Shown here: positions 45,746 through 48,755 of the stretch, piece by piece
How positions within the stretch are numbered: position 1 is the stretch's first letter
Layout of the letters: each line of letters opens with the position of its first letter
NCBI RefSeq assembly: GCF_044324875.1
Contig: NZ_CP172185.1
Length of the DNA: 64,000 bases
Source of the DNA: Escherichia coli
GTDB taxonomy: Bacteria; Pseudomonadota; Gammaproteobacteria; Enterobacterales; Enterobacteriaceae
Reading direction: 5' to 3' (one strand)
Translations under genes and position numbers: made by a program
Notes under the pieces: generated by a model
Seen by the model: the letters and a program-made list of their open reading frames with translations, nothing else
What the model was told of the DNA's origin: nothing
The model's database searches: none

Positions 45746-45876
45746 CCAATCACCTCTTAAATTATTACTATAGTTCTATCTATAACTTCGCAAATAAAAA
45801 TACCGGAGAACTAATCATCAAAAAAGATAATTAGTTCAACCAGCATTAATAATATGGAATATCCAGACAATCTATT

Positions 45877-46332
45877 TCATTTTAAATCTATATATAACAT
45901 TTTCCCTGCAAGCAAGGCCAATTCTGATTTAAAACCCTTTCCGGCCAAGAAAGCCATTTGAAGTTCTCGTAAATTATCCATGGTTTTAGAAATATCATCA
46001 TTTGAGTTAGATGATAGATAAATATTGCACCTAGATTGCAATTCATTAAAGGCTCTGATAATCAACTTTCTATTAACATAACCTTCATCATTTTCTAAAT
46101 TCTTTGGCATAGAAATCAAAGTATTATTATACTCAATGATAGCATCCATCAATTTCAATTTTTTGTCTTCATTATACTGTTTTTTCCATTGCCCTAATGC
46201 GAGAAAACCCACAATCCCTGCGAACAAAGTAACTCCAATACTCGCCAGACTCACAAGAGCAGAAAATTTAGCCCAAAATGCAGCATCTCTGTTAGCTACA
46301 AGAGTTTCATAAGCAATATAAGTAGCGTCCAT
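45877..46332 (-). CDS. Hypothetical membrane-anchored protein (cargo gene A1)
   Basis: 151 aa; single N-terminal TM helix; strong SD (gaggtg) 4-5 nt upstream of ATG; AT-rich; no recognisable family. Confidence 0.55.
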   Translation of the reverse strand: MDATYIAYETLVANRDAAFWAKFSALVSLASIGVTLFAGIVGFLALGQWKKQYNEDKKLKLMDAIIEYNNTLISMPKNLENDEGYVNRKLIIRAFNELQSRCNIYLSSNSNDDISKTMDNLRELQMAFLAGKGFKSELALLAGKMLYIDLK

Positions 46333-46451
46333 TTACACCTCACTTTATTTTAGAGGTGATTATAGCAAATTACATTCAATCAGGGCTGTACAGTTTTTTA
46401 TCAATTATACTTCGCCATCTCGCTATTATATAACAATATCTTTACATATTG

Positions 46452-47078
46452 ATGGCGTGCCAGCACAATACTGTCACGTACAACCATTCGGATTACTCAG
46501 AGAAAAGTATGATTCAGGATTTACTGATCGAAGCAATTAGTCACGATAGGATGCATAAAAAGTTAAATGAACTGAATTGCTACTTCTACAATCGCAAACA
46601 TGAAACACAAATACGTGATGAGTTAGTTGTTATAATCAATCAAATCAGCACACTAACTGCTTTAAGTGAGCATCCAAAACTCGGTATCGGCGCTGTTGAC
46701 ATATCACTTTATAACCAGTCGATATTGACGCCTGAACATAATGGCAATGTTGCAACCATCGAGATAAAACATCATTACCCAAAAGATTTGCTTTATCGGC
46801 AGGTTCAAGAAGATATCACTTCCGATATTTCAAGAGTAATAGTTTCACCAACTACACACTTTATCCATATAATCCAGCAAAGAACCAGAATTAAAACTCC
46901 TTCTTTTGGTCAAGTGAAATTCCTTGAACGTGATGCAAGTGATATCAGCACTTATGTGCAATATCTTGAGGAGCTAAGTTCATTTCCCAGTAATTTTCAT
47001 AAAAAAAGTGTATGTATTGAGGTAATTGGTGAAATTATGTCGACATATACCTTTAACGTATATTCATTTGACAACTGA
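46452..47078 (+). CDS. Hypothetical protein (cargo gene A2), divergent from A1
   Basis: About 190-209 aa; ORF begins TTG 46449 / ATG 46452, alternative start ATG 46509 (MIQDLLIEAI...); AT-rich; no recognisable family. Confidence 0.5.
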   Translation: MACQHNTVTYNHSDYSEKSMIQDLLIEAISHDRMHKKLNELNCYFYNRKHETQIRDELVVIINQISTLTALSEHPKLGIGAVDISLYNQSILTPEHNGNVATIEIKHHYPKDLLYRQVQEDITSDISRVIVSPTTHFIHIIQQRTRIKTPSFGQVKFLERDASDISTYVQYLEELSSFPSNFHKKSVCIEVIGEIMSTYTFNVYSFDN

Positions 47079-47099
47079 TTAAACTGTCAATTTTATTGC

Positions 47100-47357
47100 T
47101 TAATGGTTAGTTCTCTCTGAATCTATTTTACGAATGTCAGCTTTATCTCGATTGCAGTTAGCCAGCGCAGACAACAGACTCACATTCAACTCCAGACTAG
47201 CACCATACGTCAGCGGATTAGGTATAAACGGTACAGGAGTATCAGAAGTCAGGCTGGCTGGCAGTGGTGCCACCGGAGCGCTCACGTAAACCGTCCGCGA
47301 ATTTCCGCAACCGGTCAGCAGCGGCAGCAGGCACATGACGTGAAGCACAATCATCAT
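47100..47357 (-). CDS. Rz1-like outer-membrane spanin (lipoprotein), overlapping Rz in another frame
   Basis: Internal Met of ORF 47100..47585 followed by lipobox LLTGC and Pro-rich mature part. Confidence 0.6.
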   Translation of the reverse strand: MMIVLHVMCLLPLLTGCGNSRTVYVSAPVAPLPASLTSDTPVPFIPNPLTYGASLELNVSLLSALANCNRDKADIRKIDSERTNH

Positions 47358-48097: not shown

Positions 48098-48424
48098 TTA
48101 CTCCTTAGAGCCACCAAACTTATTACCGATTACTCTCATTGCAGCCCCACGAATAGCATCGACACCGATCAGCCCCACCCCACCACCAATGGCAACAGAA
48201 AGCGATTTAGGCCATCCGACATACTCAAGAGCGGATGCAAAAGTCAGCGTCAGAGCGCCACAGAGTAGAATTTCGAGTGTTTTTCGCTTCCAGCCACCAC
48301 CACCGCCAAAATAGGCAATGCGCAAGCCAGCCATAACGATCGACATAATCACTGCGCCCAGTGGTGTGTCTCCACGCCACCAGCTCTGGACCAACTCCAG
48401 CCAGGTATTTGGGTTATGAGGCAT
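48098..48424 (-). CDS. Holin
   Basis: 108 aa with hydrophobic segments and charged C-terminus; immediately upstream of endolysin. Confidence 0.7.
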   Translation of the reverse strand: MPHNPNTWLELVQSWWRGDTPLGAVIMSIVMAGLRIAYFGGGGGWKRKTLEILLCGALTLTFASALEYVGWPKSLSVAIGGGVGLIGVDAIRGAAMRVIGNKFGGSKE

Positions 48425-48567
48425 TTGTAGTTATCTCTCACCTCGCCGATACAGGAGGTGCAAATTGAGGGAGTACCACGAACCGCAAACCAGAAGCGGA
48501 AACGTAAAAGAAGCCGAGCCAATGGATAAGTACTAGATAGACCAAGCCCAACGAATACCAAGGCCCA

Positions 48568-48598
48568 GAAATGACAAAACCCGCTCGACGGCGGGTTT
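48568..48598 (-). terminator. tR'-like rho-independent terminator upstream of holin
   Basis: Minus-strand hairpin aacccgc-cgtcga-gcgggtt followed by TTTTGT; located between the expected late promoter region and the holin start. Confidence 0.5.
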
Positions 48599-48755
48599 AA
48601 GCTGTGTGGCAAAGTAACCACTCTTAACACGATATAATACTTTTTGCGTACGCGTTAACTTTTTCTGTAGTATTTAGTGTAAGATTCTTCACAAGATAGA
48701 TACTTTGGAGTACATGATGTAAAGTGCTGTATGCATAAACAGTACAAAGGATATC

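Follow-up and report, generated by a model that had tools for sequence, protein, structure and literature searches.

A probable late-gene control cassette of an Escherichia coli lambdoid prophage, set apart from its antiterminator gene by a Kiwa defence operon

The minus-strand segment 48669-48567 of a 64,000-nucleotide stretch of Escherichia coli DNA (contig NZ_CP172185.1 of assembly GCF_044324875.1; the whole stretch is called the window below, and positions refer to it) is very probably the late-gene control cassette of a lambdoid prophage. It would consist of the late promoter pR', a Q-binding element, a -10-like pause sequence and an intrinsic terminator. This reading is based on homology, the pattern of conservation, covariation with the antiterminator Q and the layout of the genes, and it is from these that we infer promoter activity, pausing, Q binding, termination and read-through in the window prophage. 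The layout, with an opposite-strand insertion between Q and its promoter, is already known from DLP12, 434 and PA-2.

The prophage region that we tested is 100% identical to E. coli strain H1827/12, and its late genes are on the minus strand. Along the direction of late transcription, a DUF968/HNH gene is followed by Q, kwaB, kwaA, a non-coding stretch of 331 bp, and then the holin, endolysin and spanin genes. The features of the locus are the following:

50189-50551, minus strand: gene for the Q antiterminator, PF06530 (Q21/Q933 type; Pfam 154 bits vs a cut-off of 26)
49283-50167, plus strand: kwaB of the Kiwa defence system, DUF4868 (PADLOC KwaB E = 2e-150, full length; Pfam KwaB)
48756-49277, plus strand: kwaA, the Kiwa membrane component (PADLOC KwaA E = 2e-83, full length)
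48670-48755, plus strand: cargo-specific leader upstream of kwaA (delimited by the end of homology to other phages)
48653-48658, minus strand: candidate pR' -35 hexamer TTAACG, with an 18-nt spacer (aligns with the annotated 933W -35, TTTACG; 4/6 consensus positions)
48642-48656, minus strand: candidate Q-binding element AACGCGTACGCAAAA (invariant in all 23 loci of the window's Q clade)
48633-48638, plus strand: perfect TATAAT, candidate divergent -10 towards kwaA (start at ~48645, 111-nt leader; no convincing -35)
48629-48634, minus strand: pR' -10 hexamer TATCGT (footprint in 63 variants; aligns with the 933W -10, TATCAT)
48622, minus strand: putative late transcription start, +1 A, accurate to ~3 nt (homologous to the capital A in gataagAgtgg of Sakai Sp5)
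48606-48621, minus strand: conserved initial transcribed segment, +2 to +17 (nearly invariant in a BLAST-derived alignment of eight loci)
48598-48567, minus strand: intrinsic-terminator-like hairpin and T-tract, candidate tR', +25 to +46 (scan, fold and conservation)
48425-48566, minus strand: holin leader, 142 nt (leader and holin are also found in SfII and SfIV)
48098-48424, minus strand: lambda-family holin, the first late gene downstream of the element (Pfam Phage_holin_3_1)

The two plus-strand genes, called B1-B2 in the preliminary description, are on sequence grounds the Kiwa operon (KwaA and KwaB), as a kwaA membrane-protein gene and a kwaB gene of the DUF4868 type are adjacent. The kwaB gene converges on Q. 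The two stop codons are only 21 nt apart, so that there is no room for a promoter between them. On the other side of the operon, homology to other phages stops at 48657-48677, and 48670-48755 therefore belongs to the Kiwa cassette, while the rest is phage backbone. This leader is AT-rich, as is the cassette itself; the GC content drops to ~35% from ~48600 and remains low across the Kiwa genes. The promoter and 5' UTR of kwaA may be contained in 48670-48755. Of 5426 complete E. coli genomes, 32 have the Kiwa cassette, and in each of them it occupies the slot between Q and pR'. To define the cassette's own promoter, we searched the 5426 genomes for the same cassette in another context, and there was none.

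The window Q scores above the gathering threshold of PF06530, the family in which the Q of 933W reaches 171 bits and a Q21 fragment 82 bits. It is 44–87% identical to the Q proteins of 933W, Sp5, cdtI, Stx2_14040, mEp460 and SfII, with 933W and Sp5 at the lower end (44–45%). The match to the Q21 structures 6P18 and 6JNX is distant, with an E-value of 6e-4 that denotes marginal similarity. A Q of the phage 82 type was ruled out: the phage 82 protein matches PF06323 at 317 bits, and the window Q has no match to that family. The detailed literature on pausing in phage 82 is thus relevant by analogy only. The mechanically called open reading frame of Q starts with TTG at 50551. All Q homologues begin with MRD(I/M), so the true start is likely to be the ATG at 50536 (MRDMYEV..., 115 aa). 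The last 6–10 residues of Q vary among phages with different cargo, and the cassette junction may accordingly be located within the 3' end of the gene. We also noted that the mEp460 record labels the DUF968/HNH gene upstream of Q (L001 5408-6397) as "Phage antitermination protein Q", where other records call it YdfU; the window counterpart is at 50554-51549. The Q label on this gene looks like an annotation error.

About 100 bp of the window, 48669-48569, are common to 362 phage records in a BLAST search, among them SfII, SfIV, mEp460, cdtI, 434, PA-2 and many Stx1 and Stx2 phages. Within the 64-kb window this element is present as a single copy. In 933W, the counterpart of 48635-48576 (83% in the alignment) is annotated as pR' (TTTACG-16-TATCAT), qut and first terminator. 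A literature search with the conserved sequence string gave unrelated matches only.

We gathered 120 further loci from IMG/VR with the transcribed core as search pattern and worked with a set of 130 loci. The positions of the -10 hexamer lay outside the pattern used for collection. Among 63 unique variants, A-11 and T-7 are found in 63/63 and T-12 in 58/63, and positions -10 to -8 vary almost freely (0.3–0.5 bits). As far as sequence can tell, this is the footprint expected of a working -10 element. Footprint and homology together point to a sigma-70 promoter, the consensus match of which is weak (4 + 4 of 12 positions). Simple promoter scans of 48600-48755 reported neither pR' nor a promoter for kwaA, and their match counts were not above those in shuffled sequence. 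The preliminary description had assigned the late promoter to 48600-48755. Its location upstream of the hairpin can be kept, but the span as a whole cannot: the promoter would occupy ~48668-48622, and 48670-48755 travels with the Kiwa cassette.

The putative start at 48622 is 7 nt past the -10 hexamer and was derived from Sakai Sp5, where the pR' start and the tR' 3' end have been mapped 258 nt apart by dRNA-seq and Term-seq (PMC7547250). The coordinates in that study refer to an older genome version; in the current sequence, we started at the second terminator's T-tract and went back by 258 nt. The start obtained in this way is the A of gataagAgtgg, 7 nt after TATCAT. Immediately downstream, 933W annotates qut at ACATTGCC, which is homologous to the +2 to +17 segment of the window. 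Within this segment, the hexamer TACTTT at 48616-48611 (+7 to +12) is a candidate sigma-dependent pause element that matches TATAAT at 3/6 positions, A2 and T6 among them. That it does not vary in the 130-locus set carries no information, as the search pattern had fixed the segment. As a separate observation, the first 17 transcribed bases can fold into a GUGGU/GCCAC hairpin whose loop is the -10-like sequence, and a C-to-T variant at +14 that occurs in some phages would preserve a G-U pair in this hairpin.

The candidate Q-binding element is composed of the palindrome GCGTACGC (48653-48646, -31 to -24) followed by an A-tract, and it occurs once in the window. Other Q clades have different symmetric sequences at the same position, and these are constant within each clade. 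The Q clade and the site at -31 to -24 covary across 99 loci, both where Q is 21 nt away and where it is 3.8 kb away. The 48 loci of the 933W/434 clade carry TTTACG(A/T)(T/A)CGTAAA, the 23 loci of the window clade carry AACGCGTACGCAAAA with GCGTACGC inside it, and the 20 loci of the cdtI and Stx2_14040 clades carry GCGGTCCGC; single clades of 5, 1 and 1 loci have TGTTATAACA, TTCGTTACGAA and GGAATTCC, respectively. By this covariation, the window promoter appears to contain a site specific for its cognate Q. Of all the evidence, it speaks most strongly for the element as the target of the upstream Q, and we hence regard the symmetric sequence as the best candidate for Q binding.

How Q would be placed on this site is uncertain. 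Q21, from the same protein family PF06530, has its binding site between the -35 and -10 hexamers and acts on polymerase that has paused at a -10-like sequence (PMC6606751). Phage 21 has a Q site between the promoter hexamers and an early transcribed -10-like pause element, as we propose for the window. However, the Q21 site is made of two direct TGAGCA repeats centred near -21 and -13 (PMC6606751), whereas the window candidate looks symmetric and is located at -31 to -24.

Downstream of the start, the stem-loop AAACCCGC-CGTCGA-GCGGGTTT at 48598-48577 on the minus strand is followed by TGTCATTTCT to ~48567. The preliminary description had named a minus-strand hairpin at 48568-48598 as the only convincing terminator upstream of the holin, and our scan bears this out. 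From Q to the holin start codon, 48598-48577 is the only terminator-like site on the minus strand except for one at 49969-49950, antisense inside kwaB, and a second terminator between the hairpin and the holin was not found in the window. There is thus one predicted intrinsic terminator between the promoter and the late genes. A single match to the simple terminator pattern is not above chance, as a 6-kb scan gave 6 sites vs 4.6 ± 2.5 in shuffled sequences; the fold predicted for the 60-nt leader has -19.6 kcal/mol (z = -2.1). The hairpin is more than a chance match because it is conserved in hundreds of phages. In diverged relatives, a hairpin of other sequence is found at the same place (ACCCGT..ACGGGT in locus L074, GCTCAAACC..GGTTTGAGC in locus L011). 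Essentially all variants have hairpin and T-run at exactly this position, including SfII and SfIV, in which, like in the window, the holin follows the hairpin without a second terminator. The 933W record annotates the homologue as "possible rho-independent terminator". An Rfam search gave sub-threshold matches only (P9, 18 bits; isrK, 12 bits); these are driven by the terminator, so that no known RNA family applies.

The other minus-strand site, TTGGGGTGTTAGCATCCCAG followed by TCTGATTTAT at 49950-49969, is ~220 nt past the Q stop codon. Early-operon transcripts that continue beyond the end of Q might be halted there, or the site may be due to chance, as 1.4 such matches are expected in the region.

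A Q gene of the PF06530 family was found upstream in 105 of the 130 loci, and most of the others are too short to tell. In all 105 loci with a detectable Q, the element lies downstream of Q and is co-oriented with it, as is the case in the window. The distance between the two varies widely. The stop codon of Q is 12–52 nt from the +1 position in 23 loci and 170 nt from it in one, and in these 24 loci (12–170 nt) the element abuts Q. In the other 81 it is 0.6–3.8 kb away, mostly with opposite-strand cargo in between: 18 loci have a distance of 0.6–0.9 kb, 56 of 1.1–1.7 kb and 7 of 2.2–3.8 kb. With 1566 nt from the Q stop codon to the putative late start, the window is in the 1.1–1.7 kb group, in agreement with the displacement of ~1.5 kb that had been proposed at the outset. 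Empty sites are found in Stx2_14040 and 933W, where the element directly abuts the Q stop codon. Together with homology, footprint and Q covariation, they support the earlier proposal that the B1-B2 operon, in the opposite orientation, lies between Q and the late promoter.

Between Q and pR', at least 22 gene arrangements occur, nearly all of them on the opposite strand. In 26 loci the gap contains the NmpC/Lc porin, which is the classic DLP12/434/PA-2 arrangement. The cargo also includes Kiwa, two PDC-M53 variants, a PDC-M68-like HNH protein, a HEC-04-like ATPase, a PDC-S20 KAP NTPase and an NsnA/PD-T4-2-like protein with a Dcm methylase. For most cargo classes, the 3' end of the cargo is 2–50 nt from the Q stop codon. 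Several further gap cassettes are uncharacterised pairs of a small multi-pass membrane protein and a partner of ~270–310 aa, a layout like that of Kiwa and PDC-M53. They are located at L005 3580-4968 (cdtI orf53/54), at L001 3575-4501 with a neighbouring unannotated ORF (mEp460) and in the gap ORFs of L025. A PADLOC search with the pairs from cdtI, mEp460 and L025 gave no matches, and one partner matches DUF6731. We consider these pairs candidates for new defence systems.

Among the closest described counterparts of the window element, phage 933W and the near-identical Sakai Sp5 prophage have a Q of the same PF06530 family. They share with the window, by homology (83% over 60 nt) and in the same order, the -10, the start region, the -10-like segment and the first hairpin. 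However, the end of Q and the promoter overlap in 933W, where +1 is 21 nt from the stop codon instead of 1566 nt, and 933W has a different symmetric site, TTTACGATCGTAAA, and a spacer of 16 nt instead of 18 nt. 933W also has a second terminator at +258 and the segment for the small RNA StxS, both of which are absent from the window. StxS is the processed 3' part of the 258-nt pR' transcript and corresponds to +49 to +258; the homology between 933W and the window stops at the first hairpin.

DLP12 (qsr'), 434 and PA-2 resemble the window in having a PF06530-type Q, opposite-strand cargo, the conserved element and a holin. Their cargo is the porin gene nmpC/lc, which has a long upstream region of its own and is 342–404 nt from the pR' +1, whereas the defence operon of the window comes within 133 nt. 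Their Q clade and symmetric site also differ from those of the window. Control of the DLP12 lysis operon by Q, across nmpC, is reported in literature cited in PMC7918800. With that control already published, a displaced late promoter is a correct and known layout.

The tai gene of phi80 offers a different comparison. Like Kiwa in the window, it is a defence gene of a lambdoid prophage that opposes phage transcription (PMC11364771). However, tai is inside the Q-controlled operon and is crossed antisense by late transcripts, whereas the window Kiwa operon is upstream of pR' and outside the late operon. The window has a second AT-rich island (45750-47100, GC 25–40%) between the spanin genes and the HNH/terminase genes, a position upstream of the packaging module that is also that of the phi80 tai hotspot (PMC11364771). 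It contains an ORF at 45877-46332 on the minus strand (151 aa, a predicted membrane protein) and one at 46449-47078 on the plus strand (209 aa). Neither has a match in Pfam or PADLOC.

By analogy with the Q family, late transcription in the window prophage would most likely proceed as follows. Without Q, polymerase would start at 48622, make an RNA of ~50 nt and stop at the hairpin. Q, produced from the gene 1.5 kb upstream, would bind at 48656-48642 and modify polymerase that is paused at TACTTT (+7 to +12). The modified polymerase would pass the hairpin and go on to transcribe the holin, endolysin, spanin and virion genes. Kiwa is located in a slot for cassettes that extends from the Q stop codon to pR', and its direction is away from pR', towards Q.

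The late promoter could instead lie directly past Q, or late transcription could come from read-through of the early operon; kwaB and kwaA would in that case be crossed antisense by late transcripts, and the conserved element would be a mere terminator. Such antisense transcription has a precedent in phi80, where tai interrupts a Q-controlled operon in opposite orientation (PMC11364771), and without a terminator in the 21 nt between the stop codons of Q and kwaB, transcripts that cross Q will enter the Kiwa genes antisense. However, there is neither a copy of the conserved element nor a clade-specific site near Q, and the minus strand from 50189 to 49758 is without a promoter-like site. The -10 footprint and the covariation with Q are both located at 48658-48629, and antisense transcripts would meet the terminator-like hairpin at 49969-49950. 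We give this explanation hardly any credence. Only slightly better, and still very improbable, is the idea that the AT-rich stretch 48600-48755 is essentially the promoter and leader of the Kiwa operon and that its likeness to a late promoter is incidental. It would account for the GC content of ~35% that begins at ~48600 and extends across the cassette, and for the perfect TATAAT at 48633-48638 that faces kwaA. Yet 48569-48669 is also present in phages that have entirely different cargo or none, which marks it as phage DNA and not as part of the cassette. Moreover, the two readings are compatible, as a kwaA promoter can overlap pR'.

A more serious question is how well the hairpin works. The promoter may be correctly placed and the hairpin at 48598-48577 be leaky or associated with pausing, an inefficient terminator that leaves the late genes poorly insulated or under some other control. 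The hairpin's homologue in Sp5 and 933W (+26 to +48, with seven T's; L009 965-990 in Sakai Sp5 and L008 2227-2249 in 933W) is inside the 258-nt StxS RNA, which ends at a second hairpin. In Sakai Sp5, the 3' end published for tR' is 258 nt downstream of the start, past the first hairpin (PMC7547250), so that the first hairpin may terminate only partly. In the window, the T-tract is interrupted (TTTTGTCATTTCT) and the GC core of the stem has only 5 bp. On the other hand, the text of PMC7547250 does not mention the first hairpin or a product of ~48 nt, and the Sp5 study did not seek such a product. The hairpin and its T-run have also been kept in place in essentially all variants, SfII and SfIV with their lack of a second terminator included. 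Judging from its sequence, the window hairpin may be the whole tR' or a leaky one; we consider the inefficient hairpin a possibility with a modest chance of being right, and retain the complete cassette, with pR', Q-binding element, pause sequence and terminator, as our reading of 48669-48567.

The region was also expected to hold a divergent promoter for B1-B2, which is plausible. We could not find a convincing sigma-70 promoter for kwaA, and a relaxed scan gave weak candidates only. The opposite-strand TATAAT shares its TA with the -12/-11 positions of pR' and sits at pR' -16 to -11. TACAAT, TATAAT or a similar hexamer is present there in 23 of 43 cargo-bearing variants vs 0 of 11 Q-abutting ones, a difference confounded by shared ancestry. 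Most of the window clade has TACAAT at this position, and the window itself has TATAAT. In most defence-type cargo classes, the first start codon is 55–148 nt from the pR' +1 (133 nt in the window). With such tight packing, the promoter of the cargo must overlap or abut pR'. We can extend this to a speculative model, according to which the gap between Q and pR' is a dedicated slot whose cargo is driven by a resident divergent TAnAAT promoter in the pR' element that starts within the Q-binding site. Late in lytic growth, the defence genes would then be shut off by RNA polymerase at pR' and by bound Q, and transcription of the cargo into the 3' end of Q would dampen Q in lysogeny. As a whole, we consider this model rather unlikely.

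For this prophage family, the analysis locates the late promoter, the candidate Q-binding site and the terminator to the base. The distance from Q to pR' is 0.6–3.8 kb in about three quarters of the related loci that we sampled, and "promoter next to Q" is therefore an unsafe rule. Opposite-strand cargo recurs in the gap between Q and pR', which makes this gap a practical place to seek new defence genes. The match between Q clades and symmetric sites amounts to a natural specificity map for the PF06530 antiterminators. This map is relevant to the expression of Shiga toxin, which is controlled by the same PF06530 family.
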